A stretch of DNA of 64,000 bases from an uncultured Acidobacteriota bacterium (GCA_963827655.1 CAWHCF010000010.1:234542-298541), one strand, 5' to 3'. Positions 15,940 through 27,140 are shown, numbered from the stretch's first letter. Numbers and translations are program-made. The notes: a model not told the origin generated them from the letters alone.

Positions 15940-17493
15940 ATGAGAAGATTCCGAATCGTTGTTCCGTCGTTCCTATGGCTGCTTGGCGTCAGCGCCTGGA
16001 GCGCTGACTGGCTGACTGATGGCGGCGATGTGATGCGCACCAACTGGCAGAAGGACGAAAGCATCATCAACACGAAGAACGCGAAGGACATCAAGTTACT
16101 TTGGAAAATCAAGCTGGACAACCAGCCGCGCCAGATGCATTCGCTCCTCCCTCCGCTCGTAATTGGACGCGTCAACACCGGCAGCGGTCCGAAGCAGCTC
16201 GTCATCCAGGCCGGCGTCTCGGATAATCTCTATGCTATCGACGTTGCTACAGGTGAACTCCTCTGGAAGAGGCGTTTTGAAAGCACATACGAGGACCCGC
16301 CCGGCGCCCGCGGACCGACTGTGCTGTGCCCCGGAGGCATGACGGCAAACGTGACGATCGGACCCGGGGGAGAGCCCGGCAAGTACACTATCTACGCCGC
16401 CTCCTGGGACGGCCGCCTGTGGCAGGTCAACGCTGCCGACGGAAAGGACAATGCTCCGCCTGCCAAATTCATGCCCCCCAACGGCAAGCCGTATGCGATG
16501 AACCTGTTCAAGAACGTTCTGTACACCCACAGCGCGCAGGGTTGTGGCGGCAACCCGAACGTCGTCTACGCCTATGATCTGGCCACCCACAAGGTAGGCA
16601 GTTGGGGACCGGCGGGCGGGGGCATGTGGGGCCGATCCGGTCCTGCCATCAGCGCCAACGGAACGATGTATACCGGAACGGGCGACGGGCGTTGGGACCC
16701 GGAAAACGGAGTCTTCGGCAACGGTATTATCGGCGTGAAGCAGAATCCCGAGACCAAGAGTCTGGAGCTCGTGGACTACTACGGGCCTTCCAACGCCGAA
16801 TGGCTCTTCAAGCGTGATCTGGATATGCAGGTGACGCCCACCATTTTCAGTTACCAGGGCAAGGAGTACATGGTGGACGCCAGCAAGGAGTGTCGTCTTT
16901 ACTTTATGGATACGGAATCCATCGGCGGCGACGATCATCGGACACCAGTCTACCGCACGCCCCTCATCTGCAATGAAATTGTGGATTTTGCGGAGGCCGG
17001 CATCTGGGGTTCCCTGGCCACGTGGGAAGAATCGAATGGAACCCGTTGGCTGTTGACACCCTTTTGGGGACCGAAGCACTCCCAGTTCAAGGCGCCGGTG
17101 GAGCATGGCGAAGTCAAGAAGGGCGCCATCGCAGCGTTCAAGGTGGAGCCGAAGGAGGGCAAAGTGCAGTTGTCGCCGGCGTGGATTTCGCGCGACATGG
17201 ATCAGGCCGAGCCCCCCGTGATCGCCAATGGCGTGGTATATGCCTATGGCAGCGGCGAAAACACGGCGCAGGCATTTCCGGACGTGGGCCTCGACTTCCG
17301 GATGGAGCGGCGACTTCCCAAGTCGACGCACGCCGTGCTGTACGCCCTGGATGCCCAGACAGGCAAGGAGCTCTGGTCCAGCGGCAAGCAGATCCCCACG
17401 TGGAATCACTGGGGCGGTCTCGCGATGGCCAACGGGCGGGTGTACATCAACACGTACGACGGGGTTCTGTACTGCTTCGGCATCAAGAAGTGA
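15940..17493 (+). CDS. PQQ-binding-like beta-propeller protein, secreted
   Basis: Signal peptide, [14 protein letters not shown] and [16 protein letters not shown] tryptophan-docking repeats. Confidence 0.85.
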
Positions 17494-18507: not shown

Positions 18508-18784
18508 TCCAGGCACCGGTCTGATGATTGTCGCGAAACCACCCGATACATGTGCGGACGGGCTATCAAGCCCGTCCGGCCCCCTGGTGGCACAAAAGCT
18601 TTCATTGGTCATTTCTCATTCGTCATCTGTCATTTGTCATTAGTGGGTGCTGCGGGCGGGTTTGCGCTCGCAGACTACGCGGGCCTTGTTACCCCATGAA
18701 TGACAAATGAAAATGAACAGACCTGATGACCCGTCGCCACAGTCAAATTGCAGGGTTAGAGCTGAGGTTTCAGCAACCGCGGGG

Positions 18785-20272
18785 TCAGCGCTTGGGCGCA
18801 ACGTCGGCGTCAAACGCGGCGGTCAGGATCCGATCTCCGACCTTGACCTGAACCCAGAGGCGATAACGGCCGTCCTGCGGGAACTCGAATGGAAAGGAGA
18901 CGGTGCCGCCGGCCACGGCGGCGTGCTCGCTGTGATCCACTGGCTTTGTGGTTGCGCCGGCGCCGCGCTCGAGTACCTGCTGAGCCGCCATCGAGAAACT
19001 CCCGGCAGGATGGATGTGGGCGAAGACGGAACCGTCATCGCGCCGGACGGCCATGTGTCCCAGCATCCCCATATAGGGCTCGAGCGCGGCCGGGCGGCCG
19101 TCGCTCCCGCGCACCTGAAAAGTGAGAGATGAGGGCTGCCCCGCGACCAGCTCCTGCTGTTGCCAGACCATGACGATACCGTCGGCGAGCGGAGCCGCCG
19201 GGCTTGCCGCGCCACCAAGCGCCGCGGCGACGTGGAAGGAGTCGTCAGGATCGGGTTCGGGCGCGGCGCCCGGCGCCGCCGTTGATGGGGCTTCGGGTAC
19301 GTCGACACGATCGGTCAGAGTCTGCGCATATCCGCTCTCGTGCGTGACGTCGGCGTAGACGACGTAGCGGCCGGCGGGGAGCGGCGGCAACCTGACGTCA
19401 AAAGTGTTCGGGTCAAGGCGGAGCGGATGGAGGTGCGCGAAGGCGTCGAGCGCCGGCTCGCGCACGAGGAACATGTGCATCAGCTTGCCATGGTCCGGCA
19501 CCAACGGACTGAAGCGGTTCCGTCCCGGTTCCTGCGCGAGCCACCGCGGATCGTCGATCGCCAGGCGGAGCACGCGCTGCGAGGCCACGGAGCGGACGCC
19601 GGTGGTGATGTGGAGCGGGCGAAACATGTTGGCGCGGTAGCGGGCGTCGACGCTGTTCCACCATGCCCTCCCACCCGCGAGCACGAGCGCCAGAACGAGA
19701 GCAGATCCGGCGATGACGCGTCGACCACGGGCCCGGCGGGCCGCGTCGGGAACTTCGCCGGGCGGAAGCACGGCCTCGCGCGCCGCAGCGCCGAGGATGG
19801 TCAGGGCCCCGACAAACAGCAAAAGACCGAGCCCTGCGAACAGCACGCCGAGCCCCCGGTCGATTCCGAGCCGCCGCGTCGCCACCGACATCACCGGGAC
19901 GACGGCCTTGCCCGACCCGGACGTGCCTTCGACCGCGACGTGGATGCTGTAGGAGCCGAAGTCCATGAGCCAGAGCTCCGCGCTCCGAAGGGTCGCGTCG
20001 CCGCGCACCGGCTGTGCCAGATCGGGGGCTGGCGCACCTTTGGTGCCGGCGTCCCAGCGGACGGGTTGGACCGTGACCCTCCCCACCTCCGGGCTCTCGA
20101 CTCGGACGGTCACTTCGGCGCGTCCCGGCACGACGCCGGGCGGGCGGACGATCACGTCGATCGCGTAGGGCCCGGCGTTGCCATGATAGAAAACGGTCGA
20201 AGCGCCGATGTGCCCCCAGGTGGCGAACGGTATCGCGATAAGGAAAGCGAGGCGCGCGAGCGTCCTGATCAC
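18785..20272 (-). CDS. His-rich exported membrane-anchored protein (signal peptide, N-terminal His, soluble domain, 2 TM, soluble domains); PmoB-like topology
   Basis: ATWG|HIG; two central TM helices; DHGKLMH, HLHP, YMGMLGH and HIHP motifs; GTGA overlap with upstream gene. Confidence 0.75.
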   Translation of the reverse strand: MIRTLARLAFLIAIPFATWGHIGASTVFYHGNAGPYAIDVIVRPPGVVPGRAEVTVRVESPEVGRVTVQPVRWDAGTKGAPAPDLAQPVRGDATLRSAELWLMDFGSYSIHVAVEGTSGSGKAVVPVMSVATRRLGIDRGLGVLFAGLGLLLFVGALTILGAAAREAVLPPGEVPDAARRARGRRVIAGSALVLALVLAGGRAWWNSVDARYRANMFRPLHITTGVRSVASQRVLRLAIDDPRWLAQEPGRNRFSPLVPDHGKLMHMFLVREPALDAFAHLHPLRLDPNTFDVRLPPLPAGRYVVYADVTHESGYAQTLTDRVDVPEAPSTAAPGAAPEPDPDDSFHVAAALGGAASPAAPLADGIVMVWQQQELVAGQPSSLTFQVRGSDGRPAALEPYMGMLGHMAVRRDDGSVFAHIHPAGSFSMAAQQVLERGAGATTKPVDHSEHAAVAGGTVSFPFEFPQDGRYRLWVQVKVGDRILTAAFDADVAPKR

Positions 20273-21442
20273 CGTTTCACCCGCGCCATCCAGCCACCCC
20301 AGGCGAGTCCGAGTCGGGCCGAGAGGAAAGAGAACAGGAGCGCCAATCCCAGACCGCGCAAGCTGAGCGGGTCCTGGGCCTGGTTCCAGAACTGGTAACG
20401 CCAGGGACCCGGGCGGGCGTCGTACGACCAGATCCGGTCGCCCCCGAAGAACCAGTTGCGCGACAGCGGGGAAAGCAGAAACTCGGAGAAAAAGAACTGC
20501 GCCGCGAGGAAGAGCGCGAAGAACACCGCGCCCACCGCGGCTGCCAGGACCCAGTCACTCTTGCAGGTCGCGCGGCGGAGCAGGAGGTCGATCCCAAACG
20601 CGGGGATTACAAGGAGCAACGGAAAGGCCGGCGGCACCATGTGGGTCACGCGGTTGTAGATCGGGCCGAGCAGCGGTTCGGCCGGAAAGAGCGGCAGAAT
20701 CCAGAGCATCGCTGCGATCAGCAGCATGTAAACGGCGGCCGCGGTGGTCGCGGGCCAGCGCAGCTTCGAGCCGCGCGCGGTCGCGAGGAGTAAGATGGGA
20801 TACAGACCGCAGCTTATCTGATAGAAGAGCGAGGCGTGCTGCTGGTTGGGAGTGTTGTACTCCATCACCAGGAGCGCGAACAGCGCAATCAGCACCCCCG
20901 CAGAGTAGCCGAAGAGTACCTGGACCCGCCCTGTCGGCGGGCCCCCTCCCGTTGTTCTGCCATGCTAACGAAAGAAGCAGCGAGCCCAGAATAATTCCGA
21001 GGATCCCGGCGGCAAGCACCGTGTGGGGCGGGCTCAGCACCTCGACGTCGAGACCATAGGCGTTGTGCCACCAGTCATCGAAGGGCGCGGAGGTCAGCAT
21101 CGCAATCGCGCCCCAGATGGCGACCCACGCTCCGAGCGGCGCCCGGAAACCCCAGACCGGCACCGATGCGCCGCGTTCCGCGGCGCTTCCGGCAAAGGTC
21201 GTCTTGAGCGCGAGCCAACCCGAGGAGAGTCCGCCCAGGATGCCCCCCAGGTACATGGCCACGTGCGCCGGCGTCCAGAAGGTGTCGCGCCCGATCGTCG
21301 AGTGCCATGAGATGTCCCAGATGGCTCCGACGATGATGCTGGTCGAGCCCACTGCGAGGGCGTACAGGTACCACGGGACAGCGCTCGAACGCTCGGTCGG
21401 AACCGGCCCGACCTGGTCGAGAGACACGGCGGCGTTGGACAT
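20269..21442 (-). CDS. Polytopic membrane protein with PmoC/AmoC-like copper motifs and PmoA-like C-terminal half (one extra base near 20945)
   Basis: DISWHSTIGRDTFWTPAH and DDWWHNAYGLDVEVLSPPH; FPLLLVIPAFGIDLLL; span is 3n+1 with a G run at the frame switch. Confidence 0.75.
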
Positions 21443-21615
21443 CGAGACCTCCTTGCGTGGAAGCCTGCATTATACCAAAAAGGTTTTTGATGTTTCTTCG
21501 TGACTTTGCGTCCTGGTGGTATTTGTTTCGCAGCGCTAACCACGAAGAGCGAAGAACACCAAGAAAGCGTGATAAGATGGCGGCAATGAAGCCAAATCCT
21601 GGCTGGGAGCTGAGG

Positions 21616-23700
21616 ATGGTGGTCCGCCCCGTAATGAGAGCCAACGGAGCTGTTCTTTTGCTCGCCTCGCTGCTCACGGCTGCCTCCGGTGAACTCCCGA
21701 ATCTCGCGCCCCAGGTGCGCTCGATGTCACCACTCGGCGGCCGCGCGGGTGAGACTGTCGAGGTGGAGGCTTCCGGACAGTGGCTGGCGAACACACAAAG
21801 CGTCGCCTTTGTCCGCCCGGATATCCGCGCCGAACTCGTTTCCTCGGAGTTCGCCAGCGTGAAGCTCAAGATTTCGATTGGACCTCGGGTTCCCACCGGG
21901 CTCCACGATTACCGGCTGCGCACTACGCACGGAACGTTCGTGGGAGTTTTTCATGTCGCTTCGCTTCCGGCGATCGGCGAGACAGAATCCAACAATGATA
22001 CTTCGCAGGCGCAGAACATTGCGCTTCCGGCCATCATCCACGGAATAGTGACCGCTCGCGACTACGATCTGTTCCGGTTCCACGCCCGTCAAGGCGAGAC
22101 TCTGGTGTTCGATGTGCTGGCGCGGCGCGCCGGGTCAGGCCTCGACGCCACATTGGCGGTCCTCGACGAACGCGGCAATGAGCTGGACTTCAACGACGAC
22201 TTCTACATCCACAAGGACCCGCATCTGGCTTTCACGGCGCCTCGCTCCGGCGATTACTTCGTTCAGGTCAGCGGGAGTGAGGAAGGCGGGTCGCCGTCGA
22301 GTCCGTACCGCTTGATCGCCGGCGCTGTTCCCCACATGCTGCGCGCGCTGCCTGCGGGGGCGCGCCGGGGCTCGTCCACGGAACTGAACATCGCCGGACT
22401 GAACCTTGACCGCGTCGAACGCCTGGTGCTCGGAGACGGGCTCGGGGAGGGAAAGGTGGTTCATGCCAGGCAGAATTCGCTCGCGGTCCGCCTGGAGGTG
22501 CCCGCCTCGGTCGCTCCCGGCCCGCATGCGCTGCGCGCGTTCGCGGGCGGAGTGGAAGCGCCCCTTCCTCTCACCGTGCTGGTTTCCGATTTCGAGGAGG
22601 CTCTGGCCTTGCCCGCGCGCAGCCGCGCGCAGCCACAGCCGGTTCGCATTCCTGCGGCGATCAGCGGCGTGCTGGAGCAGCGCCGGACCGCGCATTTCTA
22701 CACCTTCGAAGTCAAGTCGGGTGACCGGCTGGTCTTCGAGGTGGACGCCATGAAGCTTGGTTACCTTGTGGATCCCGTGGTTGGCATCTACACCCTGAAT
22801 GGGGAGTTGCTCGCCTCCGACGATGACCGCTTGCAGCAAAACGGCGATGAACCACCCAACCTGGACCCCTATCTCGTGTACCAGTTTGACAAAGCCGGTC
22901 AATATCTCGCCATGATTCGCGATCTGGCGCAGCGCGGCGATCAGAATTACCTGTACCGGCTCGCGATCTACCCGGCCAAACCGGATTTCGACGTGAGGGC
23001 TTTGACGCCGGCAATTACCTTGTACCGGGGTCAGACGGTGCTGCTTCCCGTGCGGGTGCGCAGACACGGCGGCTGGGAAACGCCCGTCGATGTCTGGTTG
23101 GAGAACCTGCCGCCAGGAGTGACCACGGACAAACGCGTTGCGGAACCCAAGCCGACCATAGTCAAAGACAACTGTGCGCTGGACCGGCGCCTCGACGGCA
23201 CAAATGTCGACCTGCCCCTTCATGTCTCCGCCAGTGCGTCGCCTGGTTCCTATTCGCTTCGCCTGCGGGCGCGCGGCGAGTACAGTGGCCGCGCCGTCGA
23301 ACACAGTGCCGAGATCCTGTACAAATGGGAGTCCGTCGGCAAAGTGACCGGGGCCATCGCCGATCAGACTCTGGTGGCAACCGTCACGGAATTCCCGCCC
23401 GTGATCCTCGATGTGCCCAGCACATTCACCATCACGCCGGGCAAGCCGGCGCGCATGCGAGTGCGCGTGACGCGGTTCGACGGCGCTGAATCTCCCCTGA
23501 CCATCGAGCCTGAAGCGCCTGTCGACGGCCTGAGATTCGAGAACAACGTTCTGGCCGCGGGAGCGGAACAGGTGGAATTGCGCATCATCGCGTCGGAGCT
23601 GGTGAAACCCGGCACTTTCCGGCTCCGCGCCGGTCCTGCGCTGTCGCAGAGCATCACATTCAAGTTGCCGAGTCAGGGCGAGGAGGAGGACCCGGAGTGA
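21616..23700 (+). CDS. PPC (pre-peptidase C-terminal) repeat protein, planctomycete type
   Basis: PLGGRAGETVEV, ETESNND, DLFRFHARQGETL, DPYLVYQF; first gene of DUF1549/DUF1501 operon; start uncertain. Confidence 0.8.
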   Translation: MVVRPVMRANGAVLLLASLLTAASGELPNLAPQVRSMSPLGGRAGETVEVEASGQWLANTQSVAFVRPDIRAELVSSEFASVKLKISIGPRVPTGLHDYRLRTTHGTFVGVFHVASLPAIGETESNNDTSQAQNIALPAIIHGIVTARDYDLFRFHARQGETLVFDVLARRAGSGLDATLAVLDERGNELDFNDDFYIHKDPHLAFTAPRSGDYFVQVSGSEEGGSPSSPYRLIAGAVPHMLRALPAGARRGSSTELNIAGLNLDRVERLVLGDGLGEGKVVHARQNSLAVRLEVPASVAPGPHALRAFAGGVEAPLPLTVLVSDFEEALALPARSRAQPQPVRIPAAISGVLEQRRTAHFYTFEVKSGDRLVFEVDAMKLGYLVDPVVGIYTLNGELLASDDDRLQQNGDEPPNLDPYLVYQFDKAGQYLAMIRDLAQRGDQNYLYRLAIYPAKPDFDVRALTPAITLYRGQTVLLPVRVRRHGGWETPVDVWLENLPPGVTTDKRVAEPKPTIVKDNCALDRRLDGTNVDLPLHVSASASPGSYSLRLRARGEYSGRAVEHSAEILYKWESVGKVTGAIADQTLVATVTEFPPVILDVPSTFTITPGKPARMRVRVTRFDGAESPLTIEPEAPVDGLRFENNVLAAGAEQVELRIIASELVKPGTFRLRAGPALSQSITFKLPSQGEEEDPE

Positions 23701-25854
23701 TCTTTGCAGCCGCCGTGCTTTTCGTATCGGTTTTCGCGCCCGTGGCGGCCGGCGAGAGCCCCAGCTTCGCCAACGACATCGTCCCGATCCTGACCAGGTC
23801 CGGCTGTGCCAACTCCAACTGTCACGGCTCGATCCGTGGTCAGGCGGGATTCAAGCTGTCCCTGTTCGGCTATGAGCCCGAACTCGACTATGACGCCATT
23901 GTAAGAGACGCGAACGGGAGGCGTATCGACCGCGCGGATCCAACCCGGAGCCTCATTCTGGCCAAGCCGACCTTTGCCATCCCGCACGGCGGCGGCGAAC
24001 GCTTCAAGGCCGGGTCGCTCGAGTACAACGGCATCCTGGAGTGGATCAAATCCGGAGCCGCGTTCGACACGCCGGGCGCGCCGCGGCTGAAGGAGCTTCA
24101 GGTGTCGCCCGCCGAGATGCTGATCACCGGCATCAATTCTCGAGCCGGCCTGTCGGTCGCAGGCGCATACACGGACGGCTCAATAGCTGACCTCACGAAA
24201 AAAGTGCAGTACACAGCCAATGACGAGTCGGTGATCGAGGTAAATGCGGCTGGTGAAATCCGCACCCTCAGGGCCGGCGAGACGGCGGTCATGGTCCGCA
24301 CGCTCGGCAAGGCAGTTGCCGTGCGCGTCGCGGTGGTGGCCCAACCGCCCCGGGCGAATTATCCCGAGACGCCGTGCGCCAACTTCATCGACGATCTCGT
24401 CGTCGCCAAGCTCAAGCGGATCAACATCGTTCCCTCGCGGTTGTCGAGCGATCACGAATTCCTGCGCCGCGTATATCTCGACACCGTCGGCGTGCTGCCC
24501 TCACTCGAAGAAACCCGCGCTTTTCTGGAGTCAAAGGATCCCGGCAAGCGAGCTCGGTTGATCGACACGCTTCTCGAGCGGCCGGAGTTTGCCGAGGTTT
24601 GGGCCACCCGCTTCAGCGACCTGTTTCGAGTAGGCTTGCTCGACCAGGGCAACAAAGGCGGCCGGCTGATCTACAACTGGATGCGCAAGGCGATCCGCGA
24701 GGACAAGCCCTATAATGAGTTCGTCACCGAACTCCTGACCGCCTCCGGCAATCTCTTCTACAACCCGACGGCCAACTTCTATTACGTCACCGAATTCGCC
24801 GAACCGGAGAATTACGCCACCAACATAAGCCAGGTCTTTCTGGGAGTGCGGCTCGAGTGCGCGCGGTGCCACAATCATCCCTGGGAAAAATGGACCCAGG
24901 ATGACTTCTGGGGCTTTGCGGGATTCTTTGCCCGCATGGGCGTGAAAGACACGTATCAGAATGATGAGAGTCAGATCCACCTGAAGTTGAAAGGCGAGGT
25001 GCTTCACCCGAAAACCAAGAAACCGGTCGCCGCCAAGTACCTGGACGGTCCGGCCGAAACCGAAGGTCCTGATGAGGACATTCGGGAAAAGCTCGCCGCG
25101 TGGATGACGTCACCCGACAATCCCTGGTTCGCGCGGGCCATCGTGAACCGAATCGTGAAGCACTATCTGGGCCGCGGTCTGGTCGAACCCTTGGATGATT
25201 TCCGCGTGACGAATCCGCCCAGCAATGAGGCGCTGCTGGACGCGTTGGCGAAGGATTTCGTCCGCAGCGGATACAGCTTGCGGCATACCATTCGACTTAT
25301 TCTCAACTCCCGCGTGTACCAGCTCTCCGAGTGAGCCGAACGAAACCAACCGTGATGACGAGATCAACTATTCGCGCTATCCCGTCAAGCGTCTCATGGC
25401 TGAGCAGCTGGTCGATGCGATCACACAGGTAACCGGCGTGCCTGAGAAGTACCAGGGGTTTCCGCTGGGTACGCGCGCCATGAGCATCCCGCGAGGCGCG
25501 CCTTCTTATTTTCTGCAAGCCTTCGGCCGCATGAAGGCGCGCGAGGTCATCTGCGAACGCGACCTGCAGCCCGCGATGAACCAGGCGATGCACCTGATCA
25601 GCGGCGATACGTTACAGCGGCAAATAACGGCGAAGAACAGCCGGCTCGCGCAATGGCTGGAAGACCCTTCGCTGTCGGATGAAGAAGTGTTGAAGCGGCT
25701 GTTTCTGACCACGCTGGTGCGCGAGCCGGATTCCCGTGAGATCTCACTGGCGCTCGCGCCCATCCGTCTCCGCGGACCCGAAGCGCGCCGGCAAGCGTTC
25801 GAAGACGCCCTGTGGGCTTTGTTCAACTCAAAAGAGTTTACTTACAACCACTGA
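23697..25854 (+). CDS. DUF1549/DUF1553 (PSCyt) domain protein (frameshift near 25330)
   Basis: SFANDIVPIL..GC..NCHG, EFLRRVYLD, CARCHNHP, FARAIVNR, RLMAEQLVDAI, EFTYNH. Confidence 0.85.
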
Positions 25855-27140
25855 TGAAACATTTTGATCGCCGCGCATTCTTGAGAATCGGTTCGACCAG
25901 CGTTTTCGGCCTGCTGACCTACGGAGAGGTATTGCGGTTGCGGGCGCAGTCCCCCGCGCCGGCCAGACGCGATGTCTCGGTGATCCATTTGTGGCTTACG
26001 GGCGGCGTGAGCCAGCTCGACACGTGGGATCCCAAGCCTGACGCCGACGGCCGCTACCGGGGCCAGTTCAAGCCGATCGAAACCAATGTCAGCGGCATAC
26101 GGATCTCCGAGCAGCTTCCGCTGACCGCCCGCCAGGCCCACAGGTACGTCATTATCCGCTCGATGACGCATAAGCAAGCCGCTCATGAAGCCGCCTGCAA
26201 CCTGATTCAAAGCGGTCACAGCCCCCTGCCTACGATCCAATTTCCGGCTATCCAGACGGTGGCCGGAAAGGAGTTGCCGCGAGGAGGCGATCTGCCCTCG
26301 GTGATCGCGATTCCGGCGGCTACCGGGAGCTGGGACAAGGCTGGTTTTCTGGGGCCACATTTCAGCCCATTCGAGGCGGGCAACCCGAATGTCGACAACT
26401 ACCGCGTTCGCGATCTGGATCTTCCCCTCGGCGTCGATTGGTCGCGCGTGGACCATCGCAGATCGCTCCTTACGGTCGTGGACGAGAAATTCCGCCGTCT
26501 CGATACCAGAGGGGTCATCGAAAGCATGGACGCCTACTATCAGACGGCGTTCGAGCTCATGCAGTCGGAGAAGGCGAAGAAGGCATTCCGCATCGACGAG
26601 GAGCCGGACGCGATGCGGGACAAGTATGGCCGCACGTCGCTCGGCCAGGGCTCTCTGCTCGCGCGCCGGCTGATCGAGGCCGGGGCCCGGTTCGTCACGG
26701 TGTCCCGCGGTTTCAACACCTGGGACCACCACAAGGATATCTTTCCTCTCTTGAAGAACGACTTTCTGCCGGAGCTGGACCGCGCCTTTTCGTCGCTCCT
26801 GGAGGACCTTCACCAGCGCGGGCTGCTCGAAAGCACTCTTGTGATCGTCACCGGCGAGTTCGGGCGGACGCCCGAGATCAATGCCATGGGCGGCCGGGAC
26901 CACTGGCCGAACGTTTTCTCTCTCGTAATCGCCGGCGCAGGAATCACAGGCGGCCGCGTCTGGGGCTCCTCGGATGAAAAGGGTATGTTTGTTCGCGACA
27001 ATCCCGTTCAGGTCGCCGACCTGGTCGCCACCATCTACCGGAAGCTCGGGATTGACTACGAGAAGGAGTACCAGAGTAACATCGGCCGCCCGGTAAAGCT
27101 CACGGATAACGGAAAGCCGCTCGACTTTCTGCTGACTTGA
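25854..27140 (+). CDS. DUF1501 domain protein (Tat motif)
   Basis: DRRAFL, GGVSQLDTWDPKP, LLARRLIEAGARFV, WDHH, GEFGRTP, GRDHW. Confidence 0.9.
   Translation: MKHFDRRAFLRIGSTSVFGLLTYGEVLRLRAQSPAPARRDVSVIHLWLTGGVSQLDTWDPKPDADGRYRGQFKPIETNVSGIRISEQLPLTARQAHRYVIIRSMTHKQAAHEAACNLIQSGHSPLPTIQFPAIQTVAGKELPRGGDLPSVIAIPAATGSWDKAGFLGPHFSPFEAGNPNVDNYRVRDLDLPLGVDWSRVDHRRSLLTVVDEKFRRLDTRGVIESMDAYYQTAFELMQSEKAKKAFRIDEEPDAMRDKYGRTSLGQGSLLARRLIEAGARFVTVSRGFNTWDHHKDIFPLLKNDFLPELDRAFSSLLEDLHQRGLLESTLVIVTGEFGRTPEINAMGGRDHWPNVFSLVIAGAGITGGRVWGSSDEKGMFVRDNPVQVADLVATIYRKLGIDYEKEYQSNIGRPVKLTDNGKPLDFLLT

Follow-up and report, generated by a model that had tools for sequence, protein, structure and literature searches.

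A widespread, unnamed membrane protein of soil bacteria resembles parts of methane and ammonia monooxygenases but is not PmoC

A 64,000-nucleotide stretch of DNA from an uncultured Acidobacteriota bacterium (GCA_963827655.1 CAWHCF010000010.1:234542-298541; the window) encodes a membrane protein with two motifs that recall the copper sites of PmoC, subunit C of particulate methane monooxygenase (pMMO). This raises the question of whether the gene belongs to a methane or ammonia monooxygenase (AMO), to a distant relative of these enzymes, or to an unrelated system. Our analysis indicated that the protein is not PmoC, though it resembles parts of pMMO and AMO. Sequence searches place it in a large, common and unnamed family of soil-bacterial proteins of about 390 residues. 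With a partner protein encoded directly downstream, it may form a metal complex of two subunits in the membrane. Such a complex would be a distant relative of the C-A core of copper membrane monooxygenases and would perform redox chemistry on an unknown substrate. We favor this reading but hold it tentatively.

Recent work on pMMO and AMO assigns the active site of both enzymes to the CuC/CuD pocket in subunit C (PMC11725843, PMC13058606), and describes the copper sites of AmoC as two His residues with either an Asp (CuC) or an Asn (CuD), both highly conserved (PMC13058606). Structures of PmoC/AmoC (PF04896) include 7s4h, 7ev9, 9cl6, 9leg and others.

The initial annotation had reported counterparts of both sites, and translation of the minus strand (20555..21442) confirmed their coordinates and spacing. 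Motif 1, DISWHSTIGRDTFWTPAH, comprises residues 43-60, and motif 2, DDWWHNAYGLDVEVLSPPH, residues 122-140. D43 and D122 are 79 residues apart, and positions 21023-21316 have the D43 and H140 codons as their exact limits. The PmoC layout given for comparison in the initial annotation, with 71 residues between the sites, agrees with an alignment of 45 PmoC/AmoC sequences and with the PmoC encoded at L089:1489-2316 (D128-GTW-H132-...-H145 and N199-EFG-H203-...P215-L-H217; D to N, 71 residues). Motif 1 is identical to the latter at 10 of 18 positions; the 11 of 18 given earlier refers to the Methylococcus sequence.

Both Asp/His/His triads proposed in the initial annotation are present and nearly invariant. 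Among 168 diverse family members, D43 is found in 167, H47 in 158 and H60 in 165, and the second triad is similarly conserved (D122 in 166, H126 in 161, H140 in 162). This set reaches down to 32% identity, and across it the six residues are 94-99% conserved; in a smaller alignment they are invariant in 42 of 42 members. Across the six-frame open frames of the same genome (6.6 million residues), the bare pattern D-x3-H-x12-H ... [DN]-x3-H-x13-H is found in this gene and in one other, so on its own it is weak evidence.

Profile comparisons are more informative. With hhalign, the alignment of 42 family members with 45 PmoC sequences was confined to motif 1 (19 columns, probability 59.9%, P 8.7e-5). 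A larger comparison of 168 family members with 116 PmoC sequences gave 111 columns (probability 50.8%, P 1.6e-4, score 41.4); the PmoC sample was bacterial and non-actinobacterial. This alignment pairs all six ligands in register with those of CuC and CuD (D43-D128, H47-H132, H60-H145, D122-N199, H126-H203 and H140-H217). Reversed profiles scored 12.9-15.6, and 30 column shuffles reached at most 21.3. When the first helix-loop-helix hairpin was compared with that of PmoC alone, the probability was 92.9% (P 3.8e-7). As judged by these profiles, motif 1 is far above chance. As a profile, its family form, D-x-x-W-H-x-T-x-x-R-D-T-x-x-T-P-x-H, matches the CuC segment of PmoC. Seven non-ligand positions (W, T, R-D-T and T-P) are common to the two, which exceeds what convergence on the ligands alone would need. 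The second triad has the same x3/x13 spacing as CuD, an acidic residue after the first ligand and a Pro two residues before the last His. In both families the two triads lie on four consecutive helices.

Two further comparisons point in the same direction more faintly. A sub-threshold PF04896 match lies on the family gene at motif 1 in three of four genomes, where it is the sole match listed per genome; the E values (0.2, 0.03 and 0.09, from this genome and two of three other carriers) are also reached by chance in control genomes. Atlas language-model features of residues 20-168 matched best an uncharacterised cluster with no common family (score 0.95), possibly the protein's own family. The next-ranked named clusters bear AmoC (score 0.88, 198 of 256 features), a match that is a lead only.

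A number of results weigh against a relationship to the monooxygenases. When motif 1 was cut from both profiles no signal was left (P 0.12, out of register), and the second hairpin compared with its PmoC counterpart gave P 0.043, also out of register. No PDB chain was found at E <= 10 with a hidden Markov model of the 42 members, nor with the single sequence of P0001, the closest database protein. In a single-sequence Pfam scan, only 3 of the 42 members touched AmoC at E <= 1, and 13 of the 42 touched FeoB_C below threshold. The protein scores 13.5 bits against PF04896 (cut-off 26.7), 14.2 against TIGR03078 (cut-off 280.6) and 14.5 against NF041641, the NCBIfam AmoC_BACT model (cut-off 319); P0001 scores 10.3 bits with the AmoC profile. 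The absence of PmoC chains from the 50 rows shown of the fold lists is, by contrast, uninformative, because these lists give one row per entry and every PmoC chain shares its entry with a better-scoring PmoA chain. A Foldseek search of viral structures for a phage PmoC returned only unrelated membrane proteins (best E 0.19).

The FeoB_C matches were regarded as compositional: in two inspected members they lie on the glycine-rich helix 2, with no stretch passing alone. AmoC is the only Pfam family matched by the membrane protein at E <= 0.1.

The homology to PmoC put forward initially is therefore upheld only in part. The local profile match and the triads in register stand, whereas homology beyond the short motif was largely not found at the sequence level and every family cut-off was missed. 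As far as sequence goes, the case for homology consists of one strong segment of 19-20 residues and a second triad whose spacing fits. On our reading, the bundle as a whole would share its ancestry with PmoC. The protein itself is not PmoC, because it falls below every AmoC/PmoC cut-off, has 390 residues and about ten helices, and comes from a genome without pmoA or pmoB.

The two hairpins of the family also resemble each other, as the initial annotation had suspected: they align in register over 44 columns (hhalign, probability 74.8%, P 2.6e-5). The same comparison detected no internal repeat between the two hairpins of PmoC. The Asp at the CuD-equivalent position needs a different reading from the Asn-to-Asp change first proposed. 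The Asn-x3-His-x13-His triad of CuD is not found as such; its spacing, H126 and H140 are present, with Asp as the first ligand. This Asp is not a substitution in the present copy. It is the family's invariant state (166 of 168 members), whereas all 116 bacterial PmoC sequences have Asn. The Asp might alter metal preference, as proposed initially. The family differs from PmoC/AmoC in other respects as well. Its members have 390 residues versus about 250-290, their triads are 79 rather than 71 residues apart, and their genes are not encoded with pmoA or pmoB.

Structure prediction provided a second line of evidence. The AlphaFold2 (AF2) model of P0001 contains about ten helices (predicted local distance difference test, pLDDT, 87.9; predicted template modelling score, pTM, 0.87). 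The four helices of the N-terminal bundle comprise residues 24-49, 58-84, 103-129 and 138-164. In a fold search against the PDB, the 12 best rows for the C-terminal half were all subunit-A chains of pMMO/AMO, confirmed by their chain names, with Z from 13.6 to 9.1; the next row had Z 7.0. Ten of these rows have Z 12.7-13.6, with 190-211 residues aligned, root-mean-square deviations of 4.0-4.8 and 10-15% identity, and two older crystal structures of subunit A have Z 9.1-9.2. Residues from about 166 to 390 superpose on PmoA/AmoA (PF02461; 4phz_B, 7s4h_B, 9cl6_B and others) with Z 13.0-13.6. The best Foldseek rows were also subunit-A chains of pMMO/AMO, with probability 0.99 but E 0.13.

The fold match has to be read with caution, and the following points weaken it. 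Foldseek found nothing in the PDB at E <= 0.001. A Foldseek-independent search gave Z 11.3 for the S component of an energy-coupling factor (ECF) transporter, and in the same search a low-resolution PmoA representative had Z 9.2. The search tool itself cautions that in helical bundles a Z below about 13 can reflect no more than a common arrangement. The hhalign probability against PmoA is 5.7%, PF02461 is not matched at E <= 0.1, and Atlas features of residues 166-390 gave a best score of 0.80, which is at noise level. In contrast to PmoA/AmoA, the A-like half of the family is fused to a C-like bundle, no sequence relation is detected, and the ECF S component is a near-equal match. The modelled C-terminal fold is PmoA-like, and for a helical bundle at a Z of about 13 this suggests common ancestry without proving it.

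The membrane protein is closely tied to its downstream neighbor. In 76 of 80 loci the next gene downstream, in the same orientation, encodes a homologue of the partner; the remaining four run out within 190 nucleotides of the membrane-protein gene. A promoter scan of the region found none. A His follows the signal peptide in 74 of the 76 loci by pattern, and in L012 by eye; L079 has an Asp. Cleavage of the signal peptide is presumed from the sequence. The partner was modelled with pLDDT 92.2 as a sandwich (residues 27-129), two helices (139-166 and 177-214) and two further sandwiches (222-325 and 345-492). The latter contain two invariant clusters, H261, H266, H280 and H282 in one, M403, H406, H419 and H421 in the other.

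Modelling of the membrane protein with the partner gave a complex score of 0.84, compared with 0.00 for the best of three controls. The calibration mark for this score is reached by 116 of 157 solved complexes and by 2 of 215 mismatched pairs, figures that are rough for alignments of our own. At least 93% of the contacts agree between runs, and the partner has pLDDT of at least 82. To the predicted interface the membrane protein contributes helix 3 and its motif-2 loop, which contact the helices and N-domain loops of the partner. The models support binding of the partner to the membrane protein.

In gross layout the partner recalls PmoB/AmoB (PF04744), which also combines a signal peptide, a mature N-terminal His, a periplasmic sandwich, two helices and one or more further sandwiches. 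It differs in having three periplasmic domains versus two, and these are immunoglobulin (Ig)/filamin-like and not demonstrably of cupredoxin topology. Homology to PmoB is not supported, a result that counts against the monooxygenase relationship: the partner has no Pfam match to PmoB, the hhalign probability is 2.3% (with seven PmoB sequences of low diversity), and its fold matches are generic Ig/FN3. Neither of the two fold searches with the three-domain partner model listed a PmoB in its top 50 rows. No Pfam family at all was found for the partner at E <= 0.1, with CopC (PF04234), CopD (PF05425), YcnI, YtkA and FixH among those searched.

The comparison set of PmoB sequences yielded a separate observation. 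Three PmoB proteins from Methylacidiphilum-like genomes (L099, L100, L103) have no His where L102 has one (...AHGERSQ in L102 versus ...AVQGMGAKSQ). This agrees with a statement in PMC13058606 that verrucomicrobial methanotrophs lack the CuB ligands.

In the window, the membrane-protein gene is interrupted by a frameshift about 80 nucleotides downstream of motif 2, which the initial annotation overlooked. The 295-residue open reading frame (ORF) is not the actual protein. Its membrane-like sequence stops near residue 168 and resumes in ORF 20269..20895. P0001, a single chain of 390 amino acids, matches residues 1-169 at 98% and residues 162-390 at 96% in the two frames. One base is missing at 20933 or 20935 in every bridging contig, in four of four soil or rhizosphere metagenome runs. 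These contigs (two in X1 and one each in X2, X3 and X4) together make up all the depth at the site; they are from close relatives, of another strain than the window. In X1 the flanks are 99% identical, while two short variant contigs cover the site, a pattern typical of a strain bubble. In-silico removal of either base restores a 390-residue open frame that is identical to P0001 at 382-383 of 390 positions.

A second gene nearby is split as well. The PSCyt2/PSD1 (DUF1549/DUF1553) gene at 23697..25854 (+) is divided between two frames near 25330, with PSD1 profile positions 2-84 in ORF 23697..25334 and 85-241 in ORF 25225..25854; a DUF1501 gene (25812..27140) comes after it. A second frameshift within 5 kb, at a distance of 4.4 kb, suggests indel errors in the assembly. 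Because the extra base is absent from the bridging contigs and a second gene is split 4.4 kb away, it is probably an assembly artefact, the alternative being a strain-specific lesion. The gene in this window should not be scored as a pseudogene without a check of the reads. A programmed frameshift is ruled out, since the relatives have a single open frame. The coordinates of all features are listed in the table.

Features of the membrane-protein locus, in window coordinates
Feature	Position	Strand	Description and basis
Whole membrane-protein gene	20269..21442	-	about 390 residues; in two frames (ORF 20555..21442, then ORF 20269..20895)
N-terminal four-helix bundle	20939..21442	-	residues 1-168, both triads; AF2 model of P0001 and conservation
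Motif 1	21263..21316	-	D43-x3-H47-x12-H60; aligns with the PmoC CuC segment; translation and hhalign
Motif 2	21023..21079	-	D122-x3-H126-x13-H140; in register with PmoC CuD N-x3-H-x13-H, in the motif-1-anchored alignment only
Extra-base site	20933..20935		frame shift in the linker between helices 4 and 5; bridging contigs and in-silico removal
C-terminal half	20269..20938	-	residues about 166-390; PmoA/AmoA-like fold; in the other frame here
GTGA overlap	20269..20272	-	GTG start of partner overlaps TGA stop of membrane-protein gene
Partner gene	18785..20272	-	495 residues; signal peptide, His21, beta-sandwich, two membrane helices, two His-rich Ig-like domains
Terminator-like hairpin	18716..18735	-	50 nucleotides after partner stop; number of such sites in region not above shuffles

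Two family members elsewhere also have unusual structures. At G263:C1:2131807-2132948, in a genome of the same phylum, the gene is split into one piece covering profile positions 10-209, which contains one TGA, and another covering positions 204-391; this genome is a single contig, and the split is either a broken copy or an assembly indel. In the database protein P0025 (481 amino acids), the N-terminal part of the membrane protein, about 180 residues long, runs straight into the C-terminal domains of the partner. This could reflect a deletion, a faulty assembly or a genuine fusion.

The family is large. A word-based search found 7967 proteins at E <= 0.001 among 8000 candidates scored; they are mostly 385-395 residues long, carry no Pfam domain and are named only 'hypothetical protein'. 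Among representatives at 50% identity, an exhaustive search gave 2115 clusters with E <= 0.001, of which 1252 also passed E <= 1e-10. Relatives are encoded in at least 597 species genomes (597 of the 600 pattern matches listed, with one genome per species). The 80 loci kept for analysis come from Acidobacteriota (Thermoanaerobaculia, Vicinamibacterales and Blastocatellia), Gemmatimonadota, Verrucomicrobiota and Methylomirabilota. Distribution within the window's phylum is patchy, with the family in 10 of 201 sampled genomes, including the window's own and the unpublished G177. A full-text literature search, with subscription journals outside its coverage, found no published description of the family.

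The genome of origin (8.18 Mb, 90.3% complete) has a single copy of the family. PF02461 (PmoA) is not found in it above the cut-off (best match 12.2 bits, E 0.54). PF04744 (PmoB) has no match, a search that was empty in the control genomes too. By its gene content, the locus is not a methane or ammonia monooxygenase operon. The four other neighbors in the window each occur in 0 of 80 loci, and no flanking ORF cluster is found in more than 10 of the 80. The divergent upstream gene (21457..23700, +; 0 of 80 loci) encodes 747 residues with a pre-peptidase C-terminal (PPC) domain and domain III of the quinohemoprotein amine dehydrogenase alpha subunit. A PQQ-repeat beta-propeller protein with a signal peptide (PQQ_2, PQQ) is encoded at 15940..17493 (+) and is near the pair in 0 of 80 loci.

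These observations suggest how the pair might work. The first four helices consist of two similar helix-loop-helix hairpins that pack into a bundle. In each hairpin, D-x-x-W-H closes one helix and P-x-H opens the next, so that the two Asp/His/His triads would be neighbors on the periplasmic face, with the linear arrangement of CuC and CuD. The remaining six or so helices have a PmoA/AmoA-like fold. An outward orientation of the sites is predicted from the Arg-rich loops 165-170 and 223-228 and from the predicted contact with the periplasmic domain. The membrane protein and its membrane-anchored periplasmic partner would be made together through translational coupling at the GTGA overlap. One or two copper ions may occupy the triad pocket, while the partner would load the metal, pass electrons, or both, and redox chemistry on an unknown substrate would take place at the outer face of the membrane. 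Copper as the metal and catalysis as the function are both presumed.

The same architecture could instead serve to acquire or insert copper or another metal. The His-first, CopC/CrdA-like domain of the partner and its two His/Met-rich domains would then capture periplasmic metal and hand it to the Asp/His/His sites, either for import or for loading of other membrane enzymes. We consider this close rival possible, if on the unlikely side. CopC/CopD, YcnJ/YcnI and CrdA are periplasmic copper-binding proteins and their membrane partners, and the present pair similarly combines a His-first periplasmic sandwich with a polytopic, His-bearing membrane protein. The N-domain of the partner has Helicobacter pylori CrdA (Z 10.3, 99 residues aligned), CopC (Z 8.8) and HftA (Z 8.4) among its best fold matches; these are, however, generic Ig-like sandwiches, and the top match is a carbohydrate-binding module (Z 10.9). 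The presumed mature N-terminal His (74 of 76 loci and L012), the invariant His and Met clusters of the partner, the lack of a redox partner or any other conserved gene nearby (no ORF cluster in more than 10 of 80 loci) and the occurrence of the family in ordinary heterotrophic soil phyla would all suit metal handling. Against it, neither CopC and CopD nor YcnI (DUF1775), YtkA and FixH are matched in Pfam at E <= 0.1, and the membrane protein differs from these systems in its motifs and fold. The partner, too, differs in being itself anchored in the membrane by a helical hairpin. In the model, the conserved polar residues lie at one face with no obvious path across the membrane but D285, and no known copper importer has an equivalent of the PmoA-like half.

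Convergence would explain the motifs differently: the family would be unrelated to PmoC and the triads an independent metal or structural site, possibly for Fe, Zn or Mn. Asp/His/His is a common triad, and similar helix-loop-helix geometry could reinforce the coincidence of a short motif. The whole sequence signal lies within about 19-20 columns, the long alignment has a probability of only about 51%, the internal repeat of the family is lacking in PmoC, chance has produced one further copy of the bare ligand pattern in the genome, and the C-terminal fold is close to ECF S components. Convergence is nevertheless improbable in our view, given that seven non-ligand positions of motif 1 are common with PmoC, that the second triad is in register with the same x3/x13 spacing and with an acidic residue and Pro in common, and that the adjoining domain has the fold of the subunit that neighbors PmoC in the enzyme. 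The Atlas features point to AmoC independently of the alignment, as a lead only. Far less probable still is a b-type haem protein, in which four invariant His residues, one on each of four consecutive helices, would bind haem in a cytochrome b561-like electron carrier. The N-terminal half does match cytochrome b561 (4o6y_A, Z 8.3, 162 residues) and Dcytb (Z 7.5), but a Z of about 8 is background for helical bundles with this tool, and no cytochrome b family appeared in the Pfam scans. The His residues are all near helix ends at one face, each with an invariant Asp four residues before it, in a way unlike bis-His sites. Hardly credible, finally, is the idea that the protein serves this organism as a true, if divergent, PmoC/AmoC subunit of a copper membrane monooxygenase, an idea that the tests above refute. 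Motif 1 and the in-register second triad would fit, but the scores are far below the family cut-offs, the length, helix count and fused C-terminal half differ, the 90% complete genome has no PmoA above the cut-off and no PmoB match, and the conserved neighbor is neither pmoA nor pmoB.

Our preferred reading, the two-subunit relative of the C-A core, can be extended further. The family would then be a deep and widespread two-subunit branch of the copper membrane monooxygenase superfamily, in which a natural single-chain C-A fusion has a CuC/CuD-type pocket (Asp replacing Asn) and a His-first partner takes the place of subunit B. It would oxidise an unknown substrate in soil bacteria, from at least four phyla, that are neither methanotrophs nor nitrifiers. 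We put this forward as a doubtful, though possible, extension.

pMMO and AMO are hard to purify and mutate. If our reading is true, a simpler two-gene relative that retains the six ligands would be a more tractable system for the copper pocket and for oxygen activation. The family, which has an A-like domain fused to it and occurs in thousands of soil bacteria, would provide a naturally occurring Asn-to-Asp variant of CuD, and an outgroup for the origin of pMMO and AMO. Should the pair prove to be a copper-handling system instead, that system would nonetheless be very common and so far without annotation.

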